From: Bdellovibrionales bacterium
GTDB lineage: Bacteria > Bdellovibrionota > Bdellovibrionia > Bdellovibrionales > UBA1609
Reading direction: 5' to 3'
NCBI GenBank assembly: GCA_016716765.1
Contig: JADJVA010000020.1
Span: 926,459 to 990,458, forward strand
Length of the DNA stretch: 64,000 nucleotides
Of the stretch, positions 12,057 through 54,205 are shown piece after piece. A model generated the notes under the pieces. It made no database searches. It had not been told where the DNA came from and saw nothing but the letters and a program-made list of their open reading frames with translations. A program made the translations under genes and the position numbers. The first letter of the stretch is position 1; every line of letters begins with the position of its first letter.

Positions 12057-12186
12057 ATGGGTAAAATGGCTTTGCTCACGGGAGCAAGTGAGAGGATTGG
12101 AGAATGCATTTGCAGTTCGTTTGGCAGATGACCAATTCAAGATTGAAGTCCGAAGATCACTGAAAATAAGTTTATTCGGTCTCTAG
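12057..12186 (+). pseudogene. N-terminal remnant of an SDR gene, frame-disrupted and truncated by the 3' end of pflA
   Basis: A strong G-rich SD precedes MGKMALLTGASERIGE, which stops after 24 codons. The +1 frame continues as ENAFAVRLADDQFKIEV. Together these form the classic TGxxxxIG-xxA-xxLA Rossmann start. There is no remainder of the gene. Confidence 0.55.
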
Positions 12187-12909
12187 TCCAACTCGTCTAA
12201 ATATTTCCTGAACTCTTACCAGTTGCTCTCGGCTTGGGGGCAATGTTTTATCTAATTCATATTTAAAGCCCATTTGCTTCCATTTGTATTCGCCCATTTT
12301 ATGAAAGGGAAGCACCTGGACCTTCGCAATGTTCTTTCTCTTGGATATCAAATTTGCGAGCGAAGTGACCTCATCCTCTGAATCGGTCAGACCAGGAACA
12401 AGAACAAAGCGCACCCAGGTTTTTTTTTCGATTTGCTCCAAGTAATCAAGCATGTTCAATGTTGGCCCCAATTTAACTCCCGTCACTTTTCTGTACGTCT
12501 TGGGGTCAAAGGCCTTAATGTCGAGTAGAACCAAGTTCACAGAATCAACAGCCGAAGATTGTTTCGAATTTATCTGAAAGTTAAATCCGGAGGTATCGAG
12601 AGCCGTATGAATATTAGCCTCGCGACAAGCGTCCGCAAGATCTCCTATGAAGTCAGGTTGGAGAAGCGGTTCTCCGCCTGTAAATGTAACTCCGCCTCCA
12701 GACTTTTCAAAATAAGCTCGGTATCGCCAAATCTCACGAAAGAGTTCCTCTGTCGTCACCTCACGCCCTTCATGTGGATGACGGGTATCGGGATTGTGAC
12801 AATACAGGCAACGAAGCGAACAGCCTTGCATAAAAACAAGATAGCGAACCCCAGGACCATCCACGGTACCGCAAGTTTCAATTGAGTGAATGCGTCCTTT
12901 CACGGACAT
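12172..12909 (-). CDS. pflA: Pyruvate formate-lyase activating enzyme (radical SAM)
   Basis: CSLRCLYCHNPDT radical-SAM cluster motif, 245 aa, and a start overlapping the pflB stop (TGATG). Confidence 0.95.
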   Translation of the reverse strand: MSVKGRIHSIETCGTVDGPGVRYLVFMQGCSLRCLYCHNPDTRHPHEGREVTTEELFREIWRYRAYFEKSGGGVTFTGGEPLLQPDFIGDLADACREANIHTALDTSGFNFQINSKQSSAVDSVNLVLLDIKAFDPKTYRKVTGVKLGPTLNMLDYLEQIEKKTWVRFVLVPGLTDSEDEVTSLANLISKRKNIAKVQVLPFHKMGEYKWKQMGFKYELDKTLPPSREQLVRVQEIFRRVGLETE

Positions 12910-15149
12910 CAGGTGCCTAATTTTTCGTGAAAAGTGCGGCGCACAACCTCTTCCTGCTGCTCACGAGTCAATTTGATAAAATTGACGGCATATCCCGACA
13001 CACGAATTGTGAGTTGTGGAAACTCCTCGGGGTGATCCATCGCCTTTAAAAGAGTATCGCGATCAAGCACATTCACATTCATGTGATGACCCCCATCGTG
13101 AAAATAGGCTGTCAACAATCCGATCAAATTTGTAACTTGATCTCTCTCTGTTGATCCCAAGGCCTTCGGAATAATAGAGAATGTGTTGGAGATGCCATCC
13201 CTGGCGTAGCGATAAGGAATCTTTGCCACTGACTCCATTGCTGCCACTGCGCCATGGGTCTCGCGGCCATGCATAGGATTTGCTCCTGGAGCAAAGGCTT
13301 CGCCAAGTCTTCTCCCGTCAGGAGTACACCCCGTCTTTTTTCCATAGACAACATTTGAAGTGATCGTCAGAACAGACAAAGTGGGAATTGCTTCCCGGTA
13401 AGTCTTTTGCTTTCGCAGTTTATTCATGAAGCGCTTCACAATATCGACCGCGATCAAATCAACCCGATCATCATTATTGCCATACTGGGGATAGTTTTCG
13501 GTGCTCCGAATAAAATCTACCGCAAGCCCACGCTCATCCCTCACCACTTTAACTTCTGAATAACGAATGGCAGACAAAGAATCTGCGACGACTGACAAGC
13601 CAGCCATGCCAGTCGCAAGAAACCGCTCCACGTGAGTGTCGTGCAATGACATTTCAATTTTTTCATAGCAGTATTTGTCATGCATATAGTGAATCACGTT
13701 CAAAGTATTCACATAAAGGTGTGCCAACCATTCCAACATCAAATCAAATTTATGAAGCACGTCTTCATATTGAAGAACATCGCCCATCACTGGAGCGAAT
13801 TCCGGACCGACCTGCTGACCGCTGATCTCGTCGCGACCACCGTTAATCGCATAGAGCAAGCATTTTGCAAGATTGGCGCGAGCACCAAAAAATTGCATTT
13901 GCTTTCCAATTTTAGCCGCAGAAACACAGCAGGCAATTGCATAGTCGTCGCCAAACGTATGGCGCATCAGATCATCATTTTCATATTGTATCGAACTCTT
14001 ATCGATCGAAACTTTTGCGCAATACTGTTTGAAAGGCTCGGGCAAGCGTTCCGCCCACAATACAGTGAGATTTGGCTCTGGCGCAGGACCCAGATTGTAC
14101 AAAGTGTGCAAAAATCTGAAGCTCGTACGAGTCACCAAAGACCGTCCGTCTTCGCTCATACCTCCAATGGATTCCGTGACCCAGGTTGGATCTCCTGAAA
14201 AGAGCTGATCATATTCGGGAGTCCGAGAAAATCGAACCATCCTCAATTTCATCACAAACTGATCCACCAACTCCTGGGCCTGAGTTTCAGTCAATTCTCC
14301 AGCTTTCAAATCTCTTTCTATATATATATCAAAGAAAGAGGAGACTCTTCCCAACGACATGGCTGCCCCATTCTGCTCTTTGACGGCAGACAGATAGGCA
14401 AAATAGGTCCACTGAATCGCTTCTTTCGCTGTGTTAGCTGGCCGACTGATATCAAAACCATAACTGGCAGCCATCACCTTGAGGGACTGAAGGGCTTTGA
14501 TTTGCTCAAAAAGCTCTTCGCGGCTACGAAGACTATCAGACTCAAGATCAATTTCTTCGCAGTCTTTGAGATCATTTTCCTTTTTTTTAATTAAACGATC
14601 AACTCCATAAAGAGCCACTCTTCTATAGTCGCCTATGATTCGCCCTCGACCGTAGGCATCTGGAAGACCCGTGATGATTCCTGACTTTCTCGCAGCCATC
14701 ATCTCTGGCGTGTAAGCCGCAAAAACTCCATCATTGTGAGTTTTTCGATGTTTCTGAAAAAAATCAATAAGGCTTGGGTTCATCTTGTAACCGTAAGACT
14801 CTAAAGCATCCGCCGCCATCCGTACTCCACCGTAAGCGACAAGTGCCCTCTTCAGTGGTCTATCTGTTTGAAGGCCAACTATTTTTTCCAAATTCTTATC
14901 AATGTATCCGGGCCCGTGAGAGGTAATTGAAGAAACAACTTCGGTATCGGCATCAAGAATTCCCTTTTGTCTTTCCTCCTTCATGAGACCAAGCACTCGA
15001 TCCCATAGCTCAGACGTTTCCTGGCTTGGACCAACAAGAAAGCTCGCATCACCTTCATAGGCTTGATAATTTTTCTGGATAAAATCGCGCACGTTTATCT
15101 CAGATTCCCAACGACCTGATTCCCACCGACCGGTAACATTGTATTTCAT
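12909..15149 (-). CDS. pflB: Formate C-acetyltransferase (pyruvate formate-lyase)
   Basis: Glycyl-radical motif RVSGYAVNF, catalytic IACCVSA, N-terminal [11 protein letters not shown], 746 aa. Confidence 0.95.
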
Positions 15150-15219
15150 ACTTCCCCCCCCGAATTGAAATAAGGCTACTACATGGAGGTCCGAAACTAA
15201 AGACCATTAAAAACAACTT

Positions 15220-16251
15220 TTAACAAATTCTTGGCAACTGTTCTCCACTCTGTTTTTCAAGAGAATAAGTTGTGCCGAATTCTGTTTCAATGAGCAAACG
15301 CCCAACAGAGCCATCCAATACAGTTCCGATAGCGGAGGAAGAGGGATCAAATTTTTTTAAGATCTTAAGGCATTCTGCCACAGCTGAATTGGGGACGATT
15401 GCTACCATCGTTCCTTCATTGGCACAAAACAAGGGATCAAGACCCAGCATTTCGCAGGCACCAGAAACCGAACTATCAACACATATCATTTTTTCCTTTA
15501 TTTTCATCTCAAGAACTCGCGTTTGCGCAAGCTCAATCAGCGCTGTGGCCAAACCGCCTCGAGTTAAATCCCGCATGACGTGAACTTCTGCATTTGATCT
15601 CAAGAGCTCCTTCACTCGTGGCCATAGATGAGAACAATCAGACTGGATCGATGATTCAAAGCCGAGATTTGCTCGATCTGCCATAATAGATATTCCGTGC
15701 CGGCCAATGGGGCCACTGAGAACAATCACATCTCCCGTACAGATATTTCTTGGAACAAAAGAATTCTTTGAAGGAGGTATCCCAATTCCACTGACATTGA
15801 TATAAATGCCATCTCCTCTTCCCCGTTCAACAACCTTTGTGTCGCCCGCAACAACTTTGACTCCGATTTCCCGAGCGGCCTGAGCCATCGAATCGACGAT
15901 TCGAATAAAATCTTTGATCGCCAGACCCTCCTCCAAGATAAAACCAACGGACAACCATCGTGGCTCGGCCCCTCCCATAGCCAAATCATTGCATGTTCCC
16001 GTCACGGCCAACTTGCCTATGTCTCCACCTCGAAAAAAAATTGGATTCACAACAAAGGAATCTGTCGCAAAACATAACTTGGAACTATCCAAAAATAGAT
16101 TGGCACAATCACTTGCCTCATTTAAACAATTCGAATCAAATGCCGGTTTTAAAATTTCATCAATCAATTGCTGTGTGAGGCGCCCACCTCCCCCATGAGC
16201 CAAGGTGATCGTAGGATATCTTTCAAATGGAAATCGACAGATCCAATCCAT
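15220..16251 (-). CDS. hypE: Hydrogenase maturation protein HypE
   Basis: AIR-synthase-like fold sequence ending in the HypE C-terminal PRIC motif. Confidence 0.9.
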   Translation of the reverse strand: MDWICRFPFERYPTITLAHGGGGRLTQQLIDEILKPAFDSNCLNEASDCANLFLDSSKLCFATDSFVVNPIFFRGGDIGKLAVTGTCNDLAMGGAEPRWLSVGFILEEGLAIKDFIRIVDSMAQAAREIGVKVVAGDTKVVERGRGDGIYINVSGIGIPPSKNSFVPRNICTGDVIVLSGPIGRHGISIMADRANLGFESSIQSDCSHLWPRVKELLRSNAEVHVMRDLTRGGLATALIELAQTRVLEMKIKEKMICVDSSVSGACEMLGLDPLFCANEGTMVAIVPNSAVAECLKILKKFDPSSSAIGTVLDGSVGRLLIETEFGTTYSLEKQSGEQLPRIC

Positions 16252-16263
16252 ATTAGGCTCTCT

Positions 16264-17379
16264 CTATTCTTTCGTTAACTTTCCTTCGAACCGACGATAT
16301 TTCCAATACGCAGCACAGGCCCCTTCATTCGAAACCATCGTCGCACCCAAGGGATTGTCAGGATGACAAATCCTATCAAAAGCCTCACAATCGTGGGGCT
16401 TCCTTATTCCTTGCAAGATCAGTCCACTGATGCAGTTTACAGGAGACACCGATAACTCTCTTTCAGCTAATTTTTCTCTAAAGCGAATTTCAGCATCGAA
16501 TTTGCGATAGGCTTCACTCAAAGTTAATCCGCTCCCATCAATTGCACCAAGACCCCGCCACTCTTTCTTTACAATCACGAACACGTCCTTCAAGATATCT
16601 TGAGCCACAGGATTTCCGCCCTCCGATACCGCGCGCGTGTACTGATTTTCGACTTCGAACCGACCTTCTTCAAGCTGGCGAACAAGGAGGTAAATTCCCT
16701 CTAAAAGATCGAGCGGTTCAAAACCCGTAATGACGATCGGAGTTTTGTATTTTGCAGAAATAGGTGCGTACTCATGATAACCCATAACCGCGCACACGTG
16801 ACCGGCCGCAAGAAATCCCTGGACTCGATTTTCGGCCGCTGACAGAATACTTTCCATCGCTGGCGGAACCAGGACATGAGACACGAGAACCGAGAAGTTC
16901 TGGATTCCCTTTTTATCAGCCATGTAAATAGCCATTGCGTTCGCAGGCGCGGTCGTTTCAAATCCAATTGCAAAAAAAACAACTTCTCTATCTGGATTCC
17001 TCTCGGCCAACTGAAGGGCATCCATAGGAGAGTAGACAATGCGCACATCTGCGCCCTGGGCCTTGGCTGAAAATAAATCCTGATGACTACCTGGAACCCT
17101 TAACATATCTCCAAAGGTACAAAATATAAGATTCGGAATCTTGGCCAGCACGATAGCACAATCTATTTTGTCAATCGGTGTGACACAGACTGGACAGCCC
17201 GGTCCGTGTACCAATTCGATTTTATCTGGCAACATTTGATCTATCCCATAGCGAACGATGCTGTGAGTTTGTCCTCCACAGATCTCCATCAGAACCCAAG
17301 GGCGAGTGCAGATCCTGCGGATTGAATCGATAATTTTCGCAGCCCGAATTGGATCCCGGTATTCAGCCATAAATTTCAC
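16264..17379 (-). CDS. hypD: Hydrogenase maturation protein HypD
   Basis: [10 protein letters not shown] and GFETT motifs, 371 aa. Confidence 0.9.
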
Positions 17380-17381
17380 GT

Positions 17382-17654
17382 TCAGTCTCCTGGCTTTCCC
17401 AGTTCCCCCATTTCTCCCAGTGTCCGATAAATCAAATCGGCTTCGTCCTTCTTTAGGCGGGTGATGGCAAAACCCACATGAACCAGGACGTAATCCCCCA
17501 CAACAGCCTCTGGCACGTAGGTTAAGTTCACTTCTTTCACAATTCCACCAAAACTCACAAAACCTCCGCGGAGAATGAGATCTGCTCGATCTGGCAAGCG
17601 AATCACTTCGGTTGTTGAAATTTTCTCAATGCGACCAGGTACTCCGAGACACAT
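17382..17654 (-). CDS. hypC: Hydrogenase assembly chaperone HypC
   Basis: N-terminal MCLGVPG with the essential Cys2, 90 aa. Confidence 0.9.
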
Positions 17655-19936
17655 ACAATTTGTCCTACCGCAATTCCCCCATCATTGGAAGGAATGTCTC
17701 TATTCCAAAAAACTTCGATTCTACGTTCACGCAAAGCTCTCACTACAAGCTCAAGAAGGAGCGCATTTTGAAAAACTCCCCCACTTAGAACGACAGGCTT
17801 TTTTTTACAAAATTCCAAATTCCTCTGTAAAATCTCAATCAAGAGAGTGACCAATAACTGATGAAAATCAAAGGCAAGGACCGTCCTCTTTTCCTTTTCG
17901 CAAGGCTCAATGCAACAGGCCGAAAAGAGACTTCGAACGTAGTCTCTCCAATCCCACCGGAACAGACCGTCAGATCCCGTTTCGAAAAGAATCGATTTCA
18001 ATTCAACAGAGAATCCACTGCTACCGAGGTCAGTCTCGCCCAACTTCTCAGCCAAGCTCTCGAGTTCAATGGCTGCCTGCCCCTCATAACTTGAAAAATG
18101 TCGTACCTCTAAAAGAGATGAAACTCCATCGAAAAAACGGCCGAGGCTAGATGATTTGACGGAGACTGGCCGCAATGATTCCATCTGCTCAATTGAAAAT
18201 TGACATCGAAGATTTTGCCACCAGAAGCTTGAAACAATTTGGTCCAAAGAAACTCCGGCCTCGCGGAGAAGACTGAAGGCCACCCTCCAGGGTTCACGTG
18301 AAGCTCGGTCGCCACCGAGCAATGGAAAAGCCCGAAAGCTAGCGATTCTCTTCAATTCATCTTGGGAAAACAAAATAACCTCTGAGCCCCAGCTAGAACC
18401 ATCTGTTCCATACCCAGTCCCATCCCATGCCACTCCTACCACTGGCTTTGAATTCAATTCCCTCTCTGCCAGAACACCGGCAATATGAGCACAGTGATGC
18501 TGCACGGGTATATACTCCTCACCGCAGACTTCGTTAGCCATGATGCTACTGCGATAGTCAGGATGAAGATCGAAAATAACCAGCGGATTTTCTATTGAAT
18601 ATTCCTTGAGCCAGTCTGATCTGAGCTTGCGATGACGATCGTCCACCCCAGTCGCGCCCATTTGTCCAAGATAGGGACTCAAGACGATACTCCGACCCGT
18701 CCCAACTGCAATTGAATTTTTCAGATCGGCTCCAAGAGCGATGAGGGGTTTTGGCTGGAGTCTCTTCACTGACAATCTCAGAGGATATCCCCTCCCCCGG
18801 CGAAGACAGCAAGTCTCACCCATCACAACTTGAACCACAGAATCATCGCCAGAGTGGGCTATTTCCAAGTCATGATCCAAAAATAAATCTGCAATGCCCC
18901 TGAGCTCAGAAAGAGCCTGCTCAATTCGAAAGCAAATTGGCTCACTTCCGCGATTTCCACTGGTGGCGACCAGCGGACCCCCAAACATTTTTAATAATTC
19001 AAGATAGTAGGCGGAAGATGCAAGCATGATTCCCACACGATGAAGTCCGGGTGCCACCCCGTCGCACAAAAGCAGTGTTGGCGATTTTTTTCTTAACAAA
19101 ACAATTGGAGCCACAGGGCTCTCCAATGCTTTGATTTCCTCATCCCCAACCAGCGAGATCGCTCGGGCCTGAGAAATATCCTGAACCATCACAGCAAAGG
19201 GCTTTGCTGGCCGTCTCTTTCTTCTTCTCAACTCCTCAATACTTTCAATGCCCCTTGCATCACACATCAAGTGAAATCCTGAGCTCCCCTTTACGGCAAG
19301 AATCTTTCCTGATTTGAGCGCCGCACAGGCGAGCTGAAGGGCTTCCTTTGCGCTCGCCAAAGGCTCTCCGCTCGGGGTTCTCAATTTGAGAGATGGACCA
19401 CACTGAGGACAAGAGATACCCTGAACGTGAAAACGTCGATTCTCAGGATCCTCGTACTCATCCTGACATTCAGAGCAAAACGGAAAGGACCTCCAAGAAG
19501 TCAACTTCCTATCATAGGGCATCCCAATAGAGACACTCTGGCGAGGCCCACATTCGGCGCATGAAATAAAAGAAAAGCCGAACCTTCGATCCTTTGGGTC
19601 CTGATATTCCTTTCTACATTCGCTGCAAATGGCTCTGTCGGGGCTAAGAACTGAGGATTTTGGATTAAAAAAATGGCTTTCATCAATTTTAAAATTGAAT
19701 TCACGAACAACTGGAGAAAGGTACTTTTTTTCAACCACTTCTCCCGCTTCTCCAATGAGTTGCTCAAATTTCTCGAGATCCCCTGCATTTTGCGATTGTG
19801 CCTCGATGAGGACAGCATCTGATTCGTTCAAAACTCGTCCTGTAATCCCATGGGCTTTCGCCATTCTTAGAATTTTTGGTCGAATTCCCATTCCCTGAAC
19901 AAGACCCGTGATCCGAAACTCAATTCGAATAGACAC
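17603..19936 (-). CDS. hypF: Carbamoyltransferase HypF
   Basis: Acylphosphatase-like N-terminus, two zinc-finger pairs (CSECRKEY...CAECGPR; CSECQDEY...CPQCGP), and YrdC-like and Kae1-like regions. The 3' end overlaps hypC by 52 nt. Confidence 0.9.
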
Positions 19937-19949
19937 CTTGATTGATCCT

Positions 19950-20216
19950 TTAGTCTTCAGCGACTTGAACTGACATCAAAACAGCGTCCTGAGCTCTCGG
20001 ATCATGAATATCAGAGGAGATTTCAAAGTTAACCTGGGCCTTCTCAGCAAGACTTCCCCTTGCATCCTCCGCAAAATGCTCAAGAAAATGCTCTGGAGTC
20101 AAATGCGAGAGCGCGCCAATCCACACAGAAATACTGACAACAGCCTTCGCTTTTTCGCTTTTTGCTATTCTATTCACTTCGCGAACAAGATCCTTCATCA
20201 TTGCAACTTCATGCAT
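19950..20216 (-). CDS. HypA-like nickel metallochaperone lacking the zinc-finger domain
   Basis: MHE N-terminus and the first ~60 aa are colinear with HypA. The protein is only 88 aa and contains no cysteine at all, so there is no CxxC...CxxC. It stops 13 nt before the hypF start. Confidence 0.6.
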   Translation of the reverse strand: MHEVAMMKDLVREVNRIAKSEKAKAVVSISVWIGALSHLTPEHFLEHFAEDARGSLAEKAQVNFEISSDIHDPRAQDAVLMSVQVAED

Positions 20217-20275
20217 TTTCCGCTCTCCTTACTCGCTATTCTCAATTGCCCTAAAAAAGACCTATTTTTGCTCTC

Positions 20276-20743
20276 TCAACTTGTGGCAAACTCCTGGCGA
20301 ACGTAAGCGATAACTTCTGGAATCATTGATCGCATTCCAGAGCTCAGCTCTTCGCCCATTTGAAAATTTACCCCTTTTACTCCGATAACAATCAATTCAT
20401 CTGGTATTTTATCCAAAGCTCGAGAGAGTTCAATGGCCTGACCTACTCCGAGCACATGAGAAGAAGTACCTGACAGACTGGCTGGGAGCGAGTCTTCCTT
20501 TGCATCCCACTTTTTTATCGGAACTAAATCGTCGGTTTCCATTGCATCAAGTACAATAACCTTTCTATGAGAGCTGAAGATATCTAGCAAATCTGTAATA
20601 TCGCCACTGCTCTTAATGACAGAAAAAAGGGTTTCCCCTCCGCTGATCAACTGATCAGCTACGATCCAAGAAAAAGCATCGTCTCCGCGATTCGGATTAG
20701 CCAAACAGACTAGAGCCTTATGGGTTAGCATCTTCACGCTCAA
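20276..20743 (-). CDS. Hydrogenase maturation endopeptidase (HyaD/HoxW family)
   Basis: LANPNRGDDAFSW (GNxxxxDD-type) and a conserved His region SSHVLGVGQ. It overlaps the large-subunit 3' end. Confidence 0.8.
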   Translation of the reverse strand: MSVKMLTHKALVCLANPNRGDDAFSWIVADQLISGGETLFSVIKSSGDITDLLDIFSSHRKVIVLDAMETDDLVPIKKWDAKEDSLPASLSGTSSHVLGVGQAIELSRALDKIPDELIVIGVKGVNFQMGEELSSGMRSMIPEVIAYVRQEFATS

Positions 20744-22076
20744 TTTTCAAAAAATGAGTGGCACAGGAAATACAGGGGTCATAATTCCGAACCGTCTGCT
20801 CACAACGATGTCGAAGTTCGTTTTCTGATGACGAAAAATAATGCCGAACGACCTCAAAAAGATCAGATTCGATTGTCTTTTGATTCTGCGAAGTCGGCGG
20901 TATAATTTTAGCCTCTTTGATTTTTCCATCGGAGCCAATTTCGTAACGATGATAAAGAAGACCCCGAGGAGCCTCAGTACACCCATGGCCAATCCCCGCT
21001 TTTACCTCATAGTTGACAAAGGCCGGCCCCCTGGCCGAATAAGCTTCAATAATCCTAAGACTTTCCTCGCAAGCGAACAAAATCTCCAACGAGCGAACAA
21101 TAATACTCTTGAAAGGATTTCGACAATCTTTGACTTCAAAATTAATGTCCCTTGCACACTCTCGTACATTCTCTGGCAGCCTGGCTTCATTGTGAAAATA
21201 TCTCGCAAGTGGACCAACCAGGTATTCGCCCCTCTCCTTTAGAACCGAATGTAGGGCGTTAGATCGAGCGACATGGAGTTCCTGAAAATGGTCTAAATAC
21301 GATGGCACTTCAATGTCCAATCCTCTATTGGAAATGATTCGACCACTGTTAATGGGGTATTCCTTTGGATGAAAGAATGAGACAAATTCGTAGTCCCTCT
21401 CAAAATCAGGGAACTCCAAGTTCGCCACAAAGCGAACTGTTTCCGCAGCGATGTCTCTTGCTTGCTTCAAAGGCTCCAGCATTTTTCGCAGTTGGGAAGG
21501 GTCCGGTAGCTTATAAAACCCACCTACCTTCACATTGATGGGGTGAATCTCGCGGCCTCCGACCAATTTCATGAGATCATTCCCAATTTTCTTAAGTTGC
21601 AATCCCTGAGAAACCACCTTTGGATATTTCTTTGCCATTGTTATGGCATCTTCAAAACCGAGAAAATCAGGAGCATGGAGCATATAGACATGCAAGGTAT
21701 GACTCTCAATCCACTCCCCACAAAAAATCAAACGACGTAACTCACAAATTTCATTCGTCAGTTCAATGCCCAATGCGGATTCCATCGCCTGAACAGCGCT
21801 CATTTGATAGGCAATCGGACAAATTCCACAAATGCGGGAAGTGATGTCACAAGCTTCCGTCAAATCACGGCCACGTAACAAAGCCTCAAAATACCTCGGG
21901 GGTTCAAATATTTTAAATTGTACCTCCTCGATCTCCTGCCCTTTTGTACGAATATAAAGAGATCCCTCTCCTTCTACTCGTGCCAAGTAGTCAACTTTAA
22001 TTGTTCTTGTTTTAAGACCGGACTGGGCACCTGGTCTAATTCCCGCCTTAATTTTAATTTCAGAATCAGAACTCAT
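20718..22076 (-). CDS. [NiFe]-hydrogenase large (alpha) subunit, group 3b-like
   Basis: N-terminal [10 protein letters not shown] and C-terminal DPCISCATH Ni-Fe ligand motifs, 452 aa. The four-subunit B-G-D-A operon order matches archaeal sulfhydrogenase. Confidence 0.9.
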
Positions 22077-22972
22077 GTGTCTTTCCTATTTGTGTCTTCC
22101 CTATCTGTGTCTCGGCCAACCAATGACTCAGTCTCTCCCAATGCCTCGGCCTTCTCCCTGTTTTTTTGAAAATCTTCCGAAGCCTCGTGAAAAGTTTTGT
22201 TGCCAGTATAATAGGTTTGCAGGGATCTGCTCACGAAGTCCGGAGACGCCCTTTTCATGGAGACCATCCAATCTCCCAGAGCACGAGGATTGGAACTATC
22301 TTGAGGCCCATAGCAGCCATAACAACCTCGGTTAAATCGGGGACATATTGATCCGCAGCCTGCATGGGTGATAGGCCCCAGGCAAGGCGTCCCATGAGCC
22401 ACCATAACACAGACGTTGCCATCTAATTTACAATCGACACACTCACTGTAAGAGTTAATATTTGGTTTGCGTCCGTGTAAAAATGCCGAAATAACCTCTA
22501 AAAGTTGAGTCTTATTGATTGGACAACCCTGGAGTTCAAAATCAACCTTGACGTGGTTTGAAATCGGAGTCGAAGTCGCCAGAGCGCTGATATAATCCGG
22601 CTGGGCATAGACGTATTTTCTATATTCCTCTTCACGAGCATAATTGCGCAAGGCCTGCACCCCACCCGAAGTCGCACAGGCTCCGATTGTCACCAAATGC
22701 CGCGATTGATTCCGAACATCCTTGATTCGGTCGGCGTCGTGAGAGGTCGTGATTGAGCCCTCAACCAATGAAAGATCATAAGGACCAGGGAGAACGTGAC
22801 GACTCGCTTCTGCAAAGTTAGCGATCTCAATGATTTCAGCAATACCAAGCAGCTCATCCTCACAATCAAGCAAACTCAATTGACAGCCATCGCAGGACGC
22901 AAATTTCCAAACGGCCAACTTAGGCTTGATTTTAGCTCTATTATTCCTCGCCTGACTCGACTTCTTTCTCAT
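22073..22972 (-). CDS. [NiFe]-hydrogenase small (delta) subunit, group 3b-like
   Basis: [24 protein letters not shown] and ELQGCPI Fe-S motifs of the NuoB-like small subunit. It has a charged C-terminal tail. Confidence 0.85.
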
Positions 22973-22975
22973 GAA

Positions 22976-23806
22976 TCAAAATTCTCTTCTCAGAAAAGTG
23001 GAACTCAATCTATCAAATGAAAAAACAGGACCGTCTTTGCAGATAAACTCTCCACCGTATTGACAATGACCGCAAAAACCCACCGCGCATTGCATGTTGC
23101 GCTCCATGGAAACGTAAATGTCTCTCTCTGCTATCCCGCGTCCTAAAAGGGGGTCCGCAATAAAGCGCATCATGATCTCAGGTCCGCAAACCATCACAAG
23201 GCTTTTCTTAGGGTCCAAATCTAAGTTCGGAATCAATTTTGTTACGGCCCCGACGTGACCCTTCCAACTCGGTCCGGCCGCGTCGACAGCCACGCTCAGT
23301 TCAACCCCGAGCTTTCGCCATTGACTGAACTCCTTTTTAAAAACCAAATCTTTAGGGGACCTCGCTCCATAGAGAACACTCAAACGACCATATCTGCTCT
23401 TGTTAGCCAGGTAAGCGTAAATAACAGGACGCAAAGGAGCCAGGCCGATTCCGCCTGCGATTAAAAATATATCCTTCTCTAGTGCCTTGTCCAGAGGCCA
23501 TGGCACTCCAAAGGGTCCTCTGAGTCCAAGTTGGCTTTTCTCTGTCAATATTTTCATTCTTCTTGTCACGGTTCCTACTGCCCGAATGGTGTGAATATAG
23601 CGATCAGCCTTGGCGGAGTCTCCGCTGATAGAAATGGGAACCTCTCCCACTCCAAACTGGTAAAGCATATTGAACTGGCCTGGCGAAAACTCCATGCTTT
23701 GCTGAGAATCTTCGGGAACCAACTCGATCGTGAACACATCACTCGTCTCCTGAGTGCACTTAACAATGCGATAGGGAACTGGAAGGAGGGAATTTTTTGA
23801 TTTCAA
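22976..23806 (-). CDS. Hydrogenase gamma subunit (FAD/NAD(P)-binding with C-terminal 2Fe-2S)
   Basis: Ferredoxin-reductase-like fold (RAVGTVTR, IAGGIGLAP) and the C-terminal cluster CAVGFCGHCQ. Confidence 0.85.
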   Translation of the reverse strand: MKSKNSLLPVPYRIVKCTQETSDVFTIELVPEDSQQSMEFSPGQFNMLYQFGVGEVPISISGDSAKADRYIHTIRAVGTVTRRMKILTEKSQLGLRGPFGVPWPLDKALEKDIFLIAGGIGLAPLRPVIYAYLANKSRYGRLSVLYGARSPKDLVFKKEFSQWRKLGVELSVAVDAAGPSWKGHVGAVTKLIPNLDLDPKKSLVMVCGPEIMMRFIADPLLGRGIAERDIYVSMERNMQCAVGFCGHCQYGGEFICKDGPVFSFDRLSSTFLRREF

Positions 23807-24273
23807 TGGCCACCCTTTCCATAAATGTCAATGAGTTGCAAACGAGTTGCACTCAACCGACCCGCAATAACCAAAGCAATTTTCTTCATCAAAAGGTATC
23901 CAAGTTCGGGATTATTTTCTGCCTTTTTCCGCAAGCACCCGCCGTCAAATTCAATCAAATGGGCTTGCTCCAAAACTCTCACGTCAAATTTCCACTTAAA
24001 AGGCTCCACCAGCCACGACCACCCAATAATCTCACCTGCTCCAAGTGTTTCAACCAAGAGAGCTCCATGCCCCTGCATGTGTGTCTCTATAGCCACTCTC
24101 CCCTTTTTAAGAACATAAAAAGCCTGAGCCGCATCGCCCTCGTGAGCAAGATACTGATCGGCCTTAACGACTCGATTTTTTCCGCATCCACCAATGAGGT
24201 TTAGATATTCCTGAGGAAAATGACTGAAGAACACACAGTCATTCAATAGGTCCGAAATTTTTTTCATCATCAA
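23803..24273 (-). CDS. Stand-alone cyclic-nucleotide-binding-domain protein (no HTH) embedded in the hydrogenase operon
   Basis: cNMP-binding-like beta-roll sequence (YLAHEGDAAQAFYVLKKGRVAIE...LGAGEIIGWSWL). It is 156 aa, so there is no room for a DNA-binding domain. It overlaps both neighbours (35 nt and 4 nt). Confidence 0.7.
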   Translation of the reverse strand: MMMKKISDLLNDCVFFSHFPQEYLNLIGGCGKNRVVKADQYLAHEGDAAQAFYVLKKGRVAIETHMQGHGALLVETLGAGEIIGWSWLVEPFKWKFDVRVLEQAHLIEFDGGCLRKKAENNPELGYLLMKKIALVIAGRLSATRLQLIDIYGKGGH

Positions 24274-25402
24274 ACGCCCTTATCTCTTCTGTTAAATCTA
24301 TACCCACCGGGCACCAACTAATGCAGCGGCCACATCCGACACATCCAGATTTTCCGTATTGATCAAACCAACTTGAGACTTTGTGAGTCAACCACTGACG
24401 ATATCGAGATTTGCCGCTCTGCCTAACACTGCCGCCATGAATATAGCTATGATCAAGGCTAAAGCAAGAATCCCATTTTCTCCATCTCTCCGCGTGATCA
24501 CCTTTTAAATCAGTCGTATCTTCAACTCTTGAACAAAAACAAGTGGGACAAACCAAAGTGCAGTTCGCACAGTTGAGGCATTTCTTAGAAATCTCATCCC
24601 AGCGAACACTATGAAAGGATCTGTCTAATAACTTTTTATCCTCGACTGGCTTCATCGATCGCACCTGCGCGTCCGCCACCATGGCGACCTGCTGACTTGA
24701 AATGAGTGACTCCTCGATAGAAGTCGGATACAAACATTTCATTCGACGCAGTTCTTCCATCAACTTCTCCCCTTCGGGAGAACCGGACTTCAGCAAAAAT
24801 CGATGATTGTCGACTTCAGGAACCTCAACCAACAAGAGATCAAAACCCTCCGATATGCCTGGTCCGGTCTTCATCGATGCACAAAAACATGTTGGTGCGA
24901 CAGACATACACTGAACTGCTATCAAAATCGTCGTCGCTCGTCTTTCTTGATATGGCCTATCAACGGCTGGTCCCTCCAAAAAAATCTGATCTTGGATTCG
25001 AATAGCGGCAAGCTCACAAGCCCTCACTCCCAAAAATGCACGACGTGAGCAAGTTATCTTCTCGGGAGTAAATAAGAGCTTCCCATCTTTGTTTTTATGA
25101 GATTTCCAAAGACGCTCTTTCGGAACAAACAAAAATTTCTTCCAACTGTCTGGACCAACAGTGAACCCAAAGTAAGCCCGGTCGTCCCGCTGAGCAAGGC
25201 GGTAAAAACCCCTTTCTTGTTTCTCCGTATAGCCTCGAGGTAAGTCTTCCACCTTTTTTAGAACATCGTAGACAATCGCTTGATCCCTCACTTGGGGGCC
25301 TACGACCTCAATCCCAGAATCTTGAAGCAACTGAATCAGCGTCGCTAATCCACCCTCACCCATCTGTTCCTCGAATTGAGGCAAGTTCAATTGAGTTTTC
25401 AT
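24239..25402 (-). CDS. Hydrogenase beta subunit (4Fe-4S dicluster protein)
   Basis: CLNCANCTLVCPTCFC and GCVGCGRCISWCPVGI ferredoxin motifs, 387 aa. Confidence 0.85.
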   Translation of the reverse strand: MKTQLNLPQFEEQMGEGGLATLIQLLQDSGIEVVGPQVRDQAIVYDVLKKVEDLPRGYTEKQERGFYRLAQRDDRAYFGFTVGPDSWKKFLFVPKERLWKSHKNKDGKLLFTPEKITCSRRAFLGVRACELAAIRIQDQIFLEGPAVDRPYQERRATTILIAVQCMSVAPTCFCASMKTGPGISEGFDLLLVEVPEVDNHRFLLKSGSPEGEKLMEELRRMKCLYPTSIEESLISSQQVAMVADAQVRSMKPVEDKKLLDRSFHSVRWDEISKKCLNCANCTLVCPTCFCSRVEDTTDLKGDHAERWRKWDSCFSLDHSYIHGGSVRQSGKSRYRQWLTHKVSSWFDQYGKSGCVGCGRCISWCPVGIDLTEEIRAFDDEKNFGPIE

Positions 25403-26712
25403 GTTTTTTTCTTAAGACCCTCGCAGAAATTCCACCAATTTTTATGCAGAGTCTCTCTGTCATCGGGATGAGAGATTTCAATCAAGGCATTGGCTCGTTC
25501 TGAAAGCGTCTTTCCGTAGAGATCCACCATGCCATATTCTGTAACAATGAAATGAACCAAGGCCCTAGGAGTCACAACACCTGCCCCGACATTGAGATTC
25601 GCCACGATCCGAGGCGCCCCATTCTTCGCGCGACTGGTTAGAGCGATGATCGGCTTCCCCCCTTCAGAGAGAGACGCTCCCAAAATAAAATCCAACTGGC
25701 CTCCCGATCCAGATATCATCCGACCTCCAATTGAATCGGCGCAGACCTGTCCAGTCAAATCGACTTCCACGGCCGAGTTAATTGCAACGACTTTTGGATT
25801 GCGAGCAATATTGATTGGATTATTGATATAACCGACATCCAACTGAACCGTCGCCTGATTGTCGTGAACAAAGCGATAGAGCTCTCGCGATCCCATCAAA
25901 AAAGAGGAGACGGTCTTTCCCTTGTGCAGCTTCTTCCTACTGTTATCTACCACTCCAGCTTGGATCAGTTTCAAAGCCCCGTCTGACCACATTTCGGTAT
26001 GAATCCCAAGATATTTTCGATTGGAAAGCTGACCCAATACGGCGTCGGGTATTGCCCCGATACCCATTTGCAGAGTTGAGCCGTCCTCCACTAAATCTGC
26101 CACATAATTTCCAATTTGTTGCTCTATAGGCGTTGGCAAGGTCGGCATTTCTTCAGGCAATTCGTCATCAACCTGAACCGCATAATTGATTTTGCTCACA
26201 TGAAGAAATCCATCCCCATGTGTTCGAGGCATGTGAGGATTAATCTGAGCGATCACAATTTTGGCTTGTTCCAGAGCGGCTGGAATAATATCGACACTCG
26301 TGCCCAAGGAACAATCGCCGTGTTGGTCCGGCGGAGAAACGTGAATAAAAACCACATCAATCTTCACTCTTTTTGAACGTATTAACTGTGGGATTTCTGA
26401 TAGCGAGCAGGGCAGATAATCAACCTGAGGAGGGCAGAATCGGCTGCGGAGGTTAGCTCCCATAAAAAAGGATGAAACTTTAAAACTATCCCTATAATTT
26501 CTATCTGCATAAGGAGCTGACCCGCTTGTATGGAGATGAAAAATCTCGACATTTTTCAGACGGTCAGATTGCTGCACCATAGCTTCTATCAGACGATGAG
26601 GAGTTGCCGCAGCTCCTTGAATCAGAACTCGATCTCCAGATCGAACTGCTTGCACTGCCTCGTGGGCGCTCACCCAGTTTACTTTCGAGGTCTGAAGCTT
26701 CATGCCGCTCAC
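25399..26712 (-). CDS. Acetyl-CoA hydrolase/transferase family protein (4-hydroxybutyrate/succinyl-CoA:acetate CoA-transferase type)
   Basis: Family-typical GSGGQLDF motif, 437 aa. The stop overlaps the hydrogenase beta start by 4 nt. Confidence 0.8.
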   Translation of the reverse strand: MSGMKLQTSKVNWVSAHEAVQAVRSGDRVLIQGAAATPHRLIEAMVQQSDRLKNVEIFHLHTSGSAPYADRNYRDSFKVSSFFMGANLRSRFCPPQVDYLPCSLSEIPQLIRSKRVKIDVVFIHVSPPDQHGDCSLGTSVDIIPAALEQAKIVIAQINPHMPRTHGDGFLHVSKINYAVQVDDELPEEMPTLPTPIEQQIGNYVADLVEDGSTLQMGIGAIPDAVLGQLSNRKYLGIHTEMWSDGALKLIQAGVVDNSRKKLHKGKTVSSFLMGSRELYRFVHDNQATVQLDVGYINNPINIARNPKVVAINSAVEVDLTGQVCADSIGGRMISGSGGQLDFILGASLSEGGKPIIALTSRAKNGAPRIVANLNVGAGVVTPRALVHFIVTEYGMVDLYGKTLSERANALIEISHPDDRETLHKNWWNFCEGLKKKT

Positions 26713-26791: not shown

Positions 26792-27244
26792 TCATGAATT
26801 TTTGTGAATCAGCCTATTTAGTGCTTCAGCATTATTTTTACCCAACACCTTGCAATATTGTTGGTAAAGATTTTTCCAACATTGATTGATTTTTGGTAAG
26901 AATTCCACTCCCTTCACCTGCAGGCAGACAACAACCTGACGTCCAGACTTCTTGCGCCTGAGGTATTTCTTTTCCTCCAACTGCCCCAGGAGACGAGTGA
27001 GAGTTGAACGATCTAAATCCATCAATTTCGCCAATACAGACGATGAAGCCGAATAAGCCTCGGATTTTCCCAAAGCCATTAGGAGAAAAGCCTGACTGGG
27101 CGACATTTCCAAATTTTTAAAGGCCTCAAAAGCCAAACGATCGATCCTACGATAAAATCGACTCATCGTAAAATAAAGACAAGCCCGAAAGCAATTGTCC
27201 AATTCTGATTCATTTGAAAAAGGCCCTTGCGTCTTCTTAATCAT
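26792..27244 (-). CDS. MarR-family transcriptional regulator
   Basis: Winged-helix region SPSQAFLLMALGK...LDRSTLTRLLGQLEEKKYLRRKK, 150 aa. Confidence 0.85.
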   Translation of the reverse strand: MIKKTQGPFSNESELDNCFRACLYFTMSRFYRRIDRLAFEAFKNLEMSPSQAFLLMALGKSEAYSASSSVLAKLMDLDRSTLTRLLGQLEEKKYLRRKKSGRQVVVCLQVKGVEFLPKINQCWKNLYQQYCKVLGKNNAEALNRLIHKNS

Positions 27245-27278
27245 TGTATATACAATTGTATATACAATGATTAAGAAG
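27233..27278. promoter_or_regulatory. 46-bp perfect palindrome whose core is two tandem copies of the self-complementary 12-mer TTGTATATACAA. Probable MarR operator in the divergent promoter region.
   Basis: 27233-27255 is the exact reverse complement of 27256-27278. The marR ATG (27244-27242) lies inside the left arm. Confidence 0.8.
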
Positions 27279-27317
27279 TCAATAGGACATTTACAACACT
27301 TTTCAAGGAGTTTTTAA

Positions 27318-27971
27318 ATGGGAAATTTAAAGGTAGCTGTTCTCGGATCTGGAACGGTAGGGGAAGTCCTCGCCAACGGCTTCCTAAAATATGGATACGA
27401 AGTGATGCGTGGCAGTCGAAACCCCTCAAAATTGAGCGATTGGAAATCAAAGAATTCAAAAAACGCAAGGATTGGCACATTTGAGGAGTCTGCCTTATTT
27501 GGAGACATTGTTGTTTTAGCAGTAAAAGGTACCGTTGCTGAGCAAGTGATAAAAAGCCTTTCTCCTTCCTCAATCAAAGGCAAGACAATCATTGACGTTA
27601 CAAATCCAATTGCAGACGTTCCACCAACCAACGGTGTGCTCAACTTCTTTACCGCAGCTAATAGCTCTCTCATGGAAGTCCTTCAAAAGGTAGCGCCCCA
27701 GGCCAATTTCGTAAAGGCCTTTTCCTGTGTCGGGGGACCTTTCATGGTGGACCCTTCTTTTCCCGGTGGAAAGCCCACCATGTTTATCTGCGGAACCAGC
27801 AGTCAGGCCAAAGGCAAAGTTCGAGAAATTCTCACTCAGTTTGGCTGGGACACCGAAGACATGGGGGGCGTTGAGGCCGCACGCGCTATTGAACCTCTTT
27901 GTATTCTTTGGTGTATTCCTGGCCTGTTGAACAACAAGTGGGGACATGCCTTTAAACTTCTGAAAATATAA
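27318..27971 (+). CDS. NAD(P)-binding oxidoreductase, NADPH-dependent F420 reductase (NpdG)-like
   Basis: N-terminal Rossmann KVAVLGSGTVG, 217 aa, and AAGGAG 8 nt upstream. Divergent from marR. Confidence 0.65.
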   Translation: MGNLKVAVLGSGTVGEVLANGFLKYGYEVMRGSRNPSKLSDWKSKNSKNARIGTFEESALFGDIVVLAVKGTVAEQVIKSLSPSSIKGKTIIDVTNPIADVPPTNGVLNFFTAANSSLMEVLQKVAPQANFVKAFSCVGGPFMVDPSFPGGKPTMFICGTSSQAKGKVREILTQFGWDTEDMGGVEAARAIEPLCILWCIPGLLNNKWGHAFKLLKI

Positions 27972-29432: not shown

Positions 29433-29660
29433 GACCTTTTGCAATACAACTAAACCCTATTATCAGTATCGAAGCTACGAAACTTCGACTCAATTCGTAG
29501 ACGCAACAGGGCTATTCATCATTGTCTTACAGCTGGACTTAATCTTTCTGAAACGCTTTGGCATACTAATCTCAACTCCAAGGACGTCGCGGCTTTTAGA
29601 GCTCTGACAGGGAGTTGATTGAAGGTTTTTTGACTTTTCTCAACTTTGAGAGGAAACACC

Positions 29661-30305
29661 ATGGCCGGTTTCTCCATTCAAGTCCCGCTACCGTTACCGC
29701 GACCGCGACCGCTCAAATCTGAAGCTGAAGTGAATTGCTTCTCTTCATCCTGTCAAAAATGGATGGGGGTGGCTTTCCCAGCGCCTTACCTCGCACAAAA
29801 CAGAGTGATAGGATTTTTCTCAAGAACCCAAGAATTAGTGGGGGGGTTCGCCTTGATCACTCAACCTCCCTTTCGAGTGATTTCAAGTCTCCCTGATGAG
29901 GCAGTCGCAAAAATTTCACATCTTAAATACGAACACGATTCCCTTTTTGAAATCACTGGATTGTGGCTTAACCCAAGTTACAAAAGTCGTCTGACCAATT
30001 TTCTCTTCTACTTAACAATTTACAAAGAAATTAGATTTTTACGAAGACCGTACTTTATTTACGCCTACTCTTCCTCGAAACCAAAATTGGGAGAGATCTA
30101 TTCCATTGCAAAACCCGTCACAATCTACCAAGGCCCCACTCTCCTCTTACCAGGTATGGCTGGCCCGGATGATGAAATCGTCCAGATTGGCTCCGTCGAA
30201 GCACTCAACAAAGCCTGGAGGTCAAATCCTGGTTTTCTTTTTAATCGACTGCGTCGCCCTCGTTCCTCCAGTTTTTATCAAAAACCAATGGATATAGAAT
30301 TATGA
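29661..30305 (+). CDS. Hypothetical protein, GNAT-like acyltransferase suspected (N-acyl-amino-acid-synthase-like size)
   Basis: GAGAGGA SD before the ATG at 29661. The strand-helix pattern ...LFEITGLWLNPSYKSRLTNFLFY... resembles a GNAT beta4-alpha3 core. No confident family by eye. Confidence 0.35.
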   Translation: MAGFSIQVPLPLPRPRPLKSEAEVNCFSSSCQKWMGVAFPAPYLAQNRVIGFFSRTQELVGGFALITQPPFRVISSLPDEAVAKISHLKYEHDSLFEITGLWLNPSYKSRLTNFLFYLTIYKEIRFLRRPYFIYAYSSSKPKLGEIYSIAKPVTIYQGPTLLLPGMAGPDDEIVQIGSVEALNKAWRSNPGFLFNRLRRPRSSSFYQKPMDIEL

Positions 30306-31594
30306 TAGAACCTAAACTGATAGATTTGATAGATTCGGAATTATCTTCGGGCGAGAAAAATCAATTTACCAAGAAGGCCACTGGCCTCCAGGCCGACTCA
30401 AGCCTTACCGAAAGCGTTGTTGAGAAAATTTTTAAAGACCGCTCGCACTGCCGCCTAGCTGATATTCAGGATGAGCCCGAATTGCTACGGTTTATGAATA
30501 TGCAGCCAATGCAAACGAAGAACTGGTCTCTCAGTTTTCAACGCGGGAAAGACTACTTTTCTTTTTATCGATTGAGCGGAGGGTCATTTTTCCCATTTGT
30601 CATGACAAACTCCCAAGGATCCATATGTGGATCATCGGGACTCATCAGAACCTCGACAGCTGTCAGAGGGGAGCCAAGCCTATTGGGATATTTGTGCGAT
30701 CTGCGCGTGGATCCGCGAGCGCCTGCAAGACGAAAATCTGATTGGCGATCTATTTATCTGGATCTCATCACTCAGCTTCGCACAACTCAGAACCCAAATG
30801 AAAGATGTGACTACTTTGTAACATCTGTTCTCGATACGAATCTTCGGGCACTTCAAGTATTGACGAAAAAGTTAGCAGGAATTCAATATCTTCCGCTGCA
30901 GCAATACAATGCGCGAAGCCTGCTTTTTCATCCCTGGCCAGGTATCTACAATCGATTGGACAATCACCTGCTTGTAAAAACCAATCAAAAAATTGATCGG
31001 GCCTATCTCGAGGACTGGCAAAAAATGAATGCAGGCTCTTTAGGTCTCCCTTATCTGCCTGATCAAATGGCCATAGATAAATACTTGGGACATCTCGATA
31101 ACCACTGGCGCCCCCTCAATCCCTTCCCCACGATTGAGGTGACAGATAAAGTAGGAAACAAACTTGGTGCCTGCTGGCCATGGCTCGGATCAAGTGTGCG
31201 CGCTCCGGTCGTGCAAGGGCTCTCACCATTCCTCACTCGGATGGGCGGATTGCTTCCAAAGTTTGGTCGTGCACCAATTGTCAACGGTCAACCAATGTCT
31301 CAAATATACCTGACTCACTTGATGATTCATCCCCACCTCCCCAAAGAACAAAAACATAAGGTGCTTCGAAAACTCGTCCTTGAAACCTACAAACTGGCGG
31401 CTGAGGAAAAAGTACACTTGATTACTTGGATCGAAGGGAGATGGCCAGCTGCACCTCATGCCAATCTTCCTGATGGTCTCATTTTTGATATGCCTGCGAC
31501 CATGTATCAGGTCGTCCCCACTTCTTCGCTCTCCGATTCTCGTCTCCTGCTTCCGCATCACACTCCTCTCTATCTCGAAGGAGCGTCCTTATGA
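30302..31594 (+). CDS. Hypothetical protein with a GNAT-like N-terminal half
   Basis: ATGA overlap with the upstream gene. ...FVMTNSQGSICGSSGLIRTSTAVRGEPSLLGYLCDLRVDPRA... looks like a GNAT core. 430 aa, possibly two domains. Confidence 0.35.
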   Translation: MIEPKLIDLIDSELSSGEKNQFTKKATGLQADSSLTESVVEKIFKDRSHCRLADIQDEPELLRFMNMQPMQTKNWSLSFQRGKDYFSFYRLSGGSFFPFVMTNSQGSICGSSGLIRTSTAVRGEPSLLGYLCDLRVDPRAPARRKSDWRSIYLDLITQLRTTQNPNERCDYFVTSVLDTNLRALQVLTKKLAGIQYLPLQQYNARSLLFHPWPGIYNRLDNHLLVKTNQKIDRAYLEDWQKMNAGSLGLPYLPDQMAIDKYLGHLDNHWRPLNPFPTIEVTDKVGNKLGACWPWLGSSVRAPVVQGLSPFLTRMGGLLPKFGRAPIVNGQPMSQIYLTHLMIHPHLPKEQKHKVLRKLVLETYKLAAEEKVHLITWIEGRWPAAPHANLPDGLIFDMPATMYQVVPTSSLSDSRLLLPHHTPLYLEGASL

Positions 31595-53805: not shown

Positions 53806-53882
53806 GCACCCTTAGCTCAATTGGATAGAGTATGTGACTTCGGATCACAGGGTTCCAGGTTCGAGTCCTGGAGGGTGCGCCA
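53806..53882 (+). tRNA. tRNA-Arg (anticodon TCG), CCA encoded
   Basis: Hand-folded: acceptor GCACCCT/AGGGTGC, anticodon arm TGTGA-CTTCGGA-TCACA, T-arm CCAGG-TTCGAGT-CCTGG. Confidence 0.9.
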
Positions 53883-54180: not shown

Positions 54181-54205
54181 CTGCGGTACTGAAGAAGCTC
54201 AAAAA

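Follow-up and report, generated by a model that had tools for sequence, protein, structure and literature searches.

Group 3b [NiFe]-hydrogenases are described as bidirectional enzymes that, in aerobic methanotrophs, use H2 to generate NAD(P)H (PMC12319191). Their archetype is the NADP-coupled sulfhydrogenase I (HydBGDA) of Pyrococcus furiosus and Thermococcus kodakarensis (PDB 9nez, 9e15, and 5yxy), and in the obligate aerobe Mycobacterium smegmatis the group 3b enzyme Hyh carries out fermentative H2 production during hypoxia (bioRxiv 10.1101/2023.09.11.557286). Here we describe a 14-gene cluster at positions 12172-26712 of a 64,000-nt stretch (hereafter, the window) of contig JADJVA010000020.1 from an uncultured Bdellovibrionales bacterium, in which a hydrogenase of this group is combined with pyruvate formate-lyase (PFL) and a CoA-transferase. 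An earlier annotation made from the letters of the DNA alone (hereafter, the sequence-only reading) had remarked that Bdellovibrio-like lineages are generally regarded as aerobic. The literature we searched agrees, since Bdellovibrionota are treated there as aerobic organoheterotrophs, and a 2026 paper refers to true anaerobes in the phylum as "previously unknown." We lean toward regarding the cluster as a chromosomal, vertically inherited group 3b cassette that has been extended into one unit for coping with oxygen shortage, the latter being the presumed physiological trigger.

Re-listing of the open reading frames (ORFs) returned the same 14 consecutive minus-strand genes, at the same coordinates, as had been described before. 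All 14 ORFs are intact and fill the interval 12172-26712 exactly, and the junctions, said earlier to be mostly overlapping or very short, lie between the 52-nt overlap of hypF with hypC and the 70-nt gap that separates hypE from pflB. A MarR-family gene just beyond position 26712 is the fifteenth co-directional gene. Pfam and NCBIfam searches identified the following genes, given in the order of transcription.

25399..26703, minus strand: family I CoA-transferase, 434 aa from an ATG that follows AAGGAG (Pfam AcetylCoA_hydro, N- and C-terminal domains)
24239..25402, minus strand: hydrogenase beta subunit, HydB/AsrA-like iron-sulfur protein (Pfam Fer4_22, E = 1e-33; top NCBIfam model HydB/ShyB; PDB chain 9nez_B, 131 bits)
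23803..24270, minus strand: cyclic nucleoside monophosphate (cNMP)-binding-domain protein, ~155 aa (Pfam cNMP_binding PF00027, 51.6 bits, E = 9e-14)
22976..23806, minus strand: hydrogenase gamma subunit, HydG/AsrB-like FAD/NAD(P)-binding and 2Fe-2S protein (Pfam NAD_binding_1 and DHODB_Fe-S_bind; 9nez_C, 156 bits)
22073..22972, minus strand: hydrogenase delta (small) subunit (Pfam Oxidored_q6; sulfhydrogenase 1 delta, 144 bits)
20718..22076, minus strand: hydrogenase alpha subunit, group 3b [NiFe] large subunit (9nez_D, 239 bits end to end; top NCBIfam models ShyA, 285, and HydA, 268)
20276..20731, minus strand: maturation endopeptidase (TIGR00072, 68 bits, cut-off 47; Pfam HycI)
19950..20216, minus strand: mini-HypA, 88 aa (Pfam HypA, 40 bits, cut-off 28.9, profile positions 1-66 of 112)
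17603..19936, minus strand: HypF carbamoyltransferase (five Pfam domains in canonical order)
17382..17654, minus strand: HypC (Pfam HupF_HypC, E = 1e-20; N terminus MCLG; 52-nt overlap with the end of HypF)
16264..17379, minus strand: HypD (Pfam HypD, E = 1e-149)
15220..16251, minus strand: HypE (Pfam AIRS and AIRS_C), placed after HypD as in most related loci
12909..15149, minus strand: PflB (TIGR01255, 1160 bits, cut-off 994)
12172..12909, minus strand: PflA, radical-SAM activase (TIGR02493, 321 bits, cut-off 232)

The assignment of the hydrogenase to group 3b, proposed from the outset, is well supported by our comparisons with solved structures. The alpha, beta, gamma, and delta subunits are each matched best by their own counterpart chain of sulfhydrogenase I (PDB 9nez), which places the enzyme in group 3b. 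More specifically, alpha scored 239 bits against sulfhydrogenase I, compared with 161 against Mvh, 127 against a group 3d enzyme, and 114 against Frh; delta scored 144 bits against sulfhydrogenase I and 48-88 against Mvh/Frh, with ShyD/HydD as its top NCBIfam models. The nickel-iron ligands of alpha are present in the motifs RICGIC (Cys83 and Cys86) and DPCISCATH (Cys435 and Cys438), and 11 residues follow the latter as the C-terminal tail on which the protease would act. Inspection by eye found no twin-arginine RRxF motif at the N terminus of delta, and the enzyme is therefore predicted to be cytosolic. The four core genes do stand in the hydBGDA order; what the earlier description of a four-subunit beta-gamma-delta-alpha enzyme missed is a fifth gene, encoding the cNMP-binding-domain protein, between beta and gamma.

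A comparison set of 159 group 3b loci, taken from genomes as well as metagenomes, revealed how the cluster is composed. Its center is an 11-gene core (beta, cNMP, gamma, delta, alpha, protease, mini-HypA, HypF, HypC, HypD, and HypE), whose order recurs across phyla, with the protease, mini-HypA, and HypF, C, D, and E genes commonly following alpha. The core is complete through hypE in L169 and L170 (72% and 74% large-subunit identity to the window, respectively) and visible as far as hypF, where the contig ends, in L171 (71%). None of these three loci carries a CoA-transferase upstream of the core, and no PFL follows hypE in L169, the one among them that extends past this gene. A CoA-transferase beside the hydrogenase was found in the window's species and in just one other locus of the survey, L004 (a 77% relative), where it lies directly upstream. 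The gene right after hypF in this locus encodes a Macro-domain protein; in the window, that gene stands beyond pflA. Among the 69 loci with enough downstream sequence, pflBA adjoins the hydrogenase in two, both from the window's species. Collectively, the conserved core and the restricted adjacency of PflBA and the CoA-transferase argue that the 14.5-kb stretch is a cassette of wide distribution to which this lineage has added genes at either end; the compact kit of the sequence-only reading is not inherited as one unit. A further scan of metagenome contigs yielded 80 additional group 3b loci, none above 69%, which leaves the interval between the species and L004 (77%) unfilled; the window's own species was not among the returns of a scan of genome contigs for such loci.

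The host could be named with the help of three window proteins, namely the large subunit (MBK9040095.1), PflB (MBK9040088.1), and PEP carboxylase (MBK9040113.1), which are identical to proteins of the NCBI metagenome-assembled genome (MAG) "Bdellovibrionales bacterium" on a 1.49-Mb contig, where they already bear generic and correct names. The earlier hint at a Bdellovibrio-like host is thereby borne out. Judging from the range of the protein accessions, the MAG may belong to a set from activated sludge. Near-identical copies occur in at least two further NCBI MAGs as well as in JGI, ENA, and Logan assemblies, and the 14-gene order is the same in independent assemblies of the species (L001-L003, plus members on contigs of 1.0-1.5 Mb).

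The module also resembles its surroundings in composition: its GC content is 0.458, compared with 0.455 for the other 40 window genes, and the respective values at third codon positions (GC3) are 0.437 and 0.449. In a neighbor-joining tree of 41 large subunits, the window clusters with three other Bdellovibrionales-labeled MAGs, and this clade is separate from Acidobacteriota, Ignavibacteriota, Zixibacteria, Chloroflexota, and others. A neighbor-joining tree of PflB places the protein in a small clade with a "Bdellovibrio sp." MAG, separate from the cyanobacterial and clostridial clades, and almost all named nearest relatives of the CoA-transferase are from Bdellovibrionales or Bdellovibrionota MAGs. 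In addition, the flanks of L004 are syntenic with those of the window (Na+/H+ exchanger, four unknown ORFs, and the Macro-domain gene). Horizontal transfer, which the sequence-only reading had proposed to test for, is not supported in the face of the host-like GC and GC3 and of these phylogenetic neighbors. Recent transfer was rejected on the flank-like composition, the two trees, and the flank synteny with L004.

Turning to the additions, PflB and PflA are what they had been taken for: both reach equivalog level, and their catalytic motifs are intact, with the glycyl-radical motif RVSGY at 716 and the Cys-Cys pair at 407-408 in PflB, and CxxxCxxC (CSLRCLYC) at residue 30 in PflA. The pflA gene has been reported to mark anaerobic organisms strongly (PMC12846827). 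Among the closest relatives of PflB, the pflBA pair is found on its own. Window ORFs of at least 120 aa, except five of 120-163 aa, were searched with Pfam, and no match to formate dehydrogenase, a group 4 hydrogenase, or FocA was found among them, in keeping with the statement that the window holds neither formate dehydrogenase nor formate hydrogenlyase (FHL). Given that there is no FHL match, H2 would be made from NAD(P)H and not from formate, which would then be an end product or be handled elsewhere.

The second addition had been called an acetyl-CoA-transferase-family enzyme. The family (AcetylCoA_hydro) is right, and by its similarities the protein belongs to the 4-hydroxybutyrate/butyryl-CoA:acetate CoA-transferase subfamily, not to the acetate:succinate type. 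Its best PDB matches are 9vag (431 bits), together with 2oas and 3gk7; solved members scored 353-431 bits, whereas ASCT/Ach1-type structures scored only 37-59 bits. The glutamate in GIHTEMWSDG aligns to E238 of AbfT, which we take to be the catalytic residue. The score against TIGR03948 (butyryl-CoA:acetate) is 268, below the cut-off of 675, those against the succinate CoA-transferase models are 85-100, far under their cut-offs, and the protein in fact lies below every equivalog cut-off of members with known substrates. An acetate:succinate (Ach1/AarC) identity, which we also considered, is unsupported at 37-59 bits and with models far below their cut-offs. The CoA-transferase and beta genes overlap by 4 nt in the window, which points to co-expression; they are 7 nt apart in L004.

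CoA-transferase homologues of ~65% identity also occur on three Bdellovibrionota-type contigs (L086, L087, and L088), next to genes for Usp, Zn-ADH, CBS, and PAS histidine kinases. This neighborhood is reminiscent of stress or hypoxia regulons.

Upstream of the CoA-transferase lie three features that may bear on the regulation of the cluster.

26792..27244, minus strand: MarR-family regulator (Pfam MarR_2, E = 4e-9), 88 nt upstream of the CoA-transferase start
27233..27278, no strand: 46-bp perfect palindrome, CTTCTTAATCATTGTATATACA-AT-TGTATATACAATGATTAAGAAG, which holds two copies of TTGTATATACAA
27255..27282, minus (module) strand: best sigma-70-like match, TTGACT-16-TACAAT, 10/12

The MarR gene is present in L001 and L003 and absent from L004, and the position of its start codon is uncertain (in L001, the gene was called at 114 aa). 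The 32-nt core of the palindrome had 0 matches in 100 shuffles, and the palindrome overlaps both the start of MarR and the promoter-like site at 27255-27282. The latter is weak on its own, as the regional count of such sites is not above shuffled expectation, and it is notable because of this overlap. In L001, from a strain whose DNA is ~95% identical, one arm of the palindrome (4797-4846) carries T>C and the other the matching A>G; the symmetry is thus kept, which points to a constraint on it. We consider the palindrome to be the probable MarR operator, at which MarR would bind and exert control. It sits in a divergent region that is common to an F420_oxidored-family gene (27318-27971).

Consensus scans for promoters and terminators gave counts not above shuffled expectation, and a scan of the cluster found no convincing internal terminator between its blocks, so the operon structure has to be read from spacing and strand. 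On this basis, the 14 genes together with MarR and its putative operator are probably co-transcribed as a single unit. The cluster arrangement is stable among the ~95%-identical assemblies, whereas the neighboring flank varies. An example of the latter is a 666-bp segment of L001 (19951-20616), most of a short-chain dehydrogenase gene, that lies between pflA and the Macro-domain gene and is missing from the window (junction 12125/12126). The overlap between the end of hypF and the start of hypC, for its part, is kept in relatives at 52-64 nt (window, 17603-17654; L001, 14423-14474; L170, 8606-8669).

The cNMP-domain gene is nearly universal. Among 69 bacterial loci from many phyla in which beta and gamma are both present, the order beta-cNMP-gamma was found in 64 and cNMP-beta-gamma in 3, and the cNMP gene was missing from 2. 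Across all 159 group 3b loci, the beta and cNMP genes are equally frequent, with delta, gamma, and protease genes in most loci as well. A cNMP-domain gene has been described from other 3b clusters, under the label HoxI-like (PMC12319191, PMC13332983). The encoded proteins conserve GWSW...P(Y)RW(H)FDARA where canonical domains bind the cyclic phosphate, so this cassette is divergent; in the window protein, Lys replaces Arg within it. No counterpart of the protein exists among the solved archaeal sulfhydrogenase chains. We postulate that it is probably a fifth subunit or a regulator of the hydrogenase.

Each of the proposed maturation genes, namely those for the protease, HypF, HypC, HypD, HypE, and a HypA-like protein, was recovered with Pfam or NCBIfam, but the set is not the full Hyp set it had been thought to be: no HypB or CobW-type match was found in the module or in the scanned window ORFs, and the HypA-like ORF is partial and cysteine-free. 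A HypB gene may lie elsewhere in the genome. Cys2 of HypC is essential, and the N terminus reads MCLG here. The N terminus of mini-HypA is MHEVAMM, in which MHE is the HypA nickel site, and its score against TIGR00100 is 37 bits, below the cut-off of 88. None of its 88 residues is a cysteine, and the profile match ends at position 66 of 112, which indicates that the zinc domain with its two CxxC pairs is missing. Homologues of 85-90 aa were found in 25 loci of several phyla (among them L004, L009, L020, L043, L065, L092, and L163), all 25 starting with MHE and 24 being free of cysteine; the gene adjoins those for the protease and hypF, usually with no HypB gene between. Mini-HypA thus looks like a HypA-like protein from which the zinc domain has been excised.

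Put together, these genes suggest the following course of events. The Bdellovibrionales-labeled lineage would have added the CoA-transferase at the 5' end of the cassette, pflBA at its 3' end, and MarR with its palindromic operator in front. When respiration fails, PflA would install the glycyl radical on PflB, and PflB would cleave pyruvate to acetyl-CoA and formate with no NADH made. The CoA-transferase would pass CoA from acetyl-CoA to another carboxylate, the presumed acceptor, so that acetate is released and the thioester energy kept. Electrons of NAD(P)H formed in upstream oxidations would enter at gamma (FAD and 2Fe-2S) and pass via the iron-sulfur clusters in beta and delta to alpha, at whose NiFe site H2 would be formed, with the cNMP-domain protein as a putative regulatory or nucleotide-binding fifth component.

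Several points weigh against such a fermentative unit. The first is the bidirectionality of group 3b enzymes, given which H2 production is a presumed direction of catalysis here. The scanned window ORFs hold no route for formate, and acetate:succinate activity is not known from the subfamily of the CoA-transferase. The 70-nt gap that precedes pflB could leave room for a promoter of its own. A scan for FNR/CRP-type boxes (TTGAT-N4-ATCAA, at most 1 mismatch) gave five matches, no more than expected by chance, and such a box is absent from all intergenic regions of the module. Both the large-subunit and the PflB trees are neighbor-joining trees with no bootstrap and few taxon-named tips. Finally, the PFL linkage is seen in one species, and pflBA stands alone in the nearest relatives; the linkage could thus be recent and not yet functionally meaningful.

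Other explanations were weighed as well. In the first, the hydrogenase mainly serves uptake, turning the H2 of neighboring fermenters into NAD(P)H under microoxic conditions, with PFL and the CoA-transferase as unrelated passengers. That group 3b enzymes of aerobic methanotrophs are described as using H2 to generate NAD(P)H (PMC12319191) would fit this explanation, as would the lack of PFL and CoA-transferase beside the core cassette in nearly all other lineages. We nevertheless consider it unlikely: the sole genes added by this lineage make or handle acetyl-CoA anaerobically, the CoA-transferase overlaps beta by 4 nt, and the characterized bacterial precedent, that of M. smegmatis, is one of H2 production.

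Slightly less probable still is that the gene order is a neutral accident, with PFL supplying formate or acetyl-CoA to biosynthesis when oxygen is low, the CoA-transferase activating scavenged short-chain acids, and each regulated independently. In related genomes, pflBA and the CoA-transferase are indeed each found alone and in varied contexts, and the single-species linkage of hydrogenase and PFL, the 70-nt gap ahead of pflB, and the 88-nt gap ahead of the CoA-transferase are all compatible with such an accident. Against it stand the 15 genes on one strand with no strong terminator predicted between the blocks, and an arrangement that is constant among the ~95%-identical assemblies despite the varying flank.

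That the cluster is foreign to the Bdellovibrionota genome (be it as a recently acquired island or through chimeric assembly or mis-binning of the MAG) is highly improbable even though the host is labeled by the name that NCBI gives to an uncultured MAG, because the same order on a 1.49-Mb contig and across several independent assemblies, the flanks syntenic with L004, and a composition equal to that of the flanks make an assembly or binning artifact unlikely, and three different genes have Bdellovibrio-labeled nearest named relatives.

A cassette inherited with the chromosome and extended for oxygen shortage therefore remains the reading that we favor. The sequence-only reading had held that a fermentative H2 module would be noteworthy in an aerobic lineage. 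The literature does call the group aerobic, but group 3b hydrogenases are common in aerobes and a hypoxia role is documented in M. smegmatis, so that the hydrogenase alone is unsurprising. A study of activated-sludge Bdellovibrionota leaves hydrogenase and formate unmentioned and speaks of fermentation in other contexts only, and searches of the accessible literature for PFL or a group 3b hydrogenase in Bdellovibrionota turned up no description of this cluster. The cluster suggests that a supposedly air-breathing group can cope without oxygen. Going one step further, it is conceivable, though we hold this somewhat below even chances, that the lineage is a facultative fermenter that cleaves pyruvate by PFL under anoxia, excretes acetate and formate, and disposes of electrons as H2 through a group 3b hydrogenase regulated by the cNMP-domain protein.

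If this is true, an anaerobic energy metabolism would be defined at the gene level in a phylum that is represented in culture by aerobic predators, and the lineage would be a source of H2 and formate in its community. For the question whether Bdellovibrio-like bacteria can live without oxygen, the cluster supplies defined genes, together with an environmental population that recurs. Two features of the group 3b cassette that have received little study, namely the nearly universal cNMP-domain gene and the mini-HypA that lacks the zinc domain and has no adjacent HypB, bear on the regulation and maturation of these common hydrogenases. No enzyme in the cluster is new, all being of known families; what is particular is their arrangement and their host. 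We therefore see moderate ecological interest and low mechanistic novelty, and the module first noticed in the DNA is real and was mostly described correctly.

The window holds other features outside the cluster. PEP carboxylase (38919-41564) lies 12 kb from the module; that it feeds, with a reductive TCA branch, succinate formation as an electron sink or CoA acceptor is pure speculation. Four consecutive plus-strand ORFs (29646-34000; 219-453 aa) with no Pfam match lie upstream of ABC/FtsX/LolA-like transporter genes, and in L001 and L004 the Na+/H+ exchanger is bordered by ORFs of similar size that have no Pfam match. At 53806-58009, a ParE-like toxin ORF (53981-54478) comes after tRNA-Arg(TCG) and precedes ORFs of clearly higher GC3 (0.54-0.57), two of them with no Pfam match; this segment may be an integrated island.

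Among known systems, sulfhydrogenase I of P. furiosus and T. kodakarensis is the one that the hydrogenase itself resembles most, with full-length best matches for the four subunits, the same Cys ligand motifs, and the same beta...gamma-delta-alpha order. It differs in lacking the extra cNMP-domain gene of the window operon, which has no counterpart among its solved chains. The subunit scores are also well under the NCBIfam equivalog cut-offs (for ShyA, 285 against 700), which makes the enzyme a sulfhydrogenase homologue and not an orthologue in the NCBI sense. For the extra gene, the closest parallel is HoxI of Ralstonia eutropha, a cNMP-binding-domain subunit of the soluble hydrogenase that is reported to permit activation by NADPH. 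Both are small cNMP-domain proteins whose genes lie within the operon of a cytosolic [NiFe]-hydrogenase linked to NAD(P), an analogy drawn in PMC12319191. HoxI, however, is part of a group 3d enzyme, whereas the window gene belongs to group 3b, and the two are likened by operon position and domain; from canonical cNMP domains, the window protein differs in its divergent phosphate-binding cassette.

The CoA-transferase shares full-length similarity and the conserved glutamate with AbfT of Clostridium aminobutyricum (3gk7) and with butyryl-CoA:acetate CoA-transferases, although it is under the equivalog cut-off of the latter. We know of no described linkage of this AbfT-type family to a hydrogenase. 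True PflB and PflA equivalogs and H2 as a predicted end product recall enterobacterial mixed-acid fermentation, from which the window departs in having neither FdhF nor a group 4 hydrogenase, as found in the PFL and formate hydrogenlyase pathway, among its scanned ORFs. In its proposed role, the cluster comes closest to Hyh (Hyd3) of M. smegmatis. Hyh is induced by hypoxia, controlled by DosR, and unlinked to PFL or a CoA-transferase, whereas the hydrogenase of the window has MarR, the CoA-transferase, and pflBA for neighbors. A Rhodococcus equi cluster that is related to Hyh also carries a cNMP-domain gene (PMC13332983). The likeness to Hyh is one of group and role: the two enzymes fall into the same hydrogenase group, and both are proposed to vent excess reductant as H2 when there is no O2.

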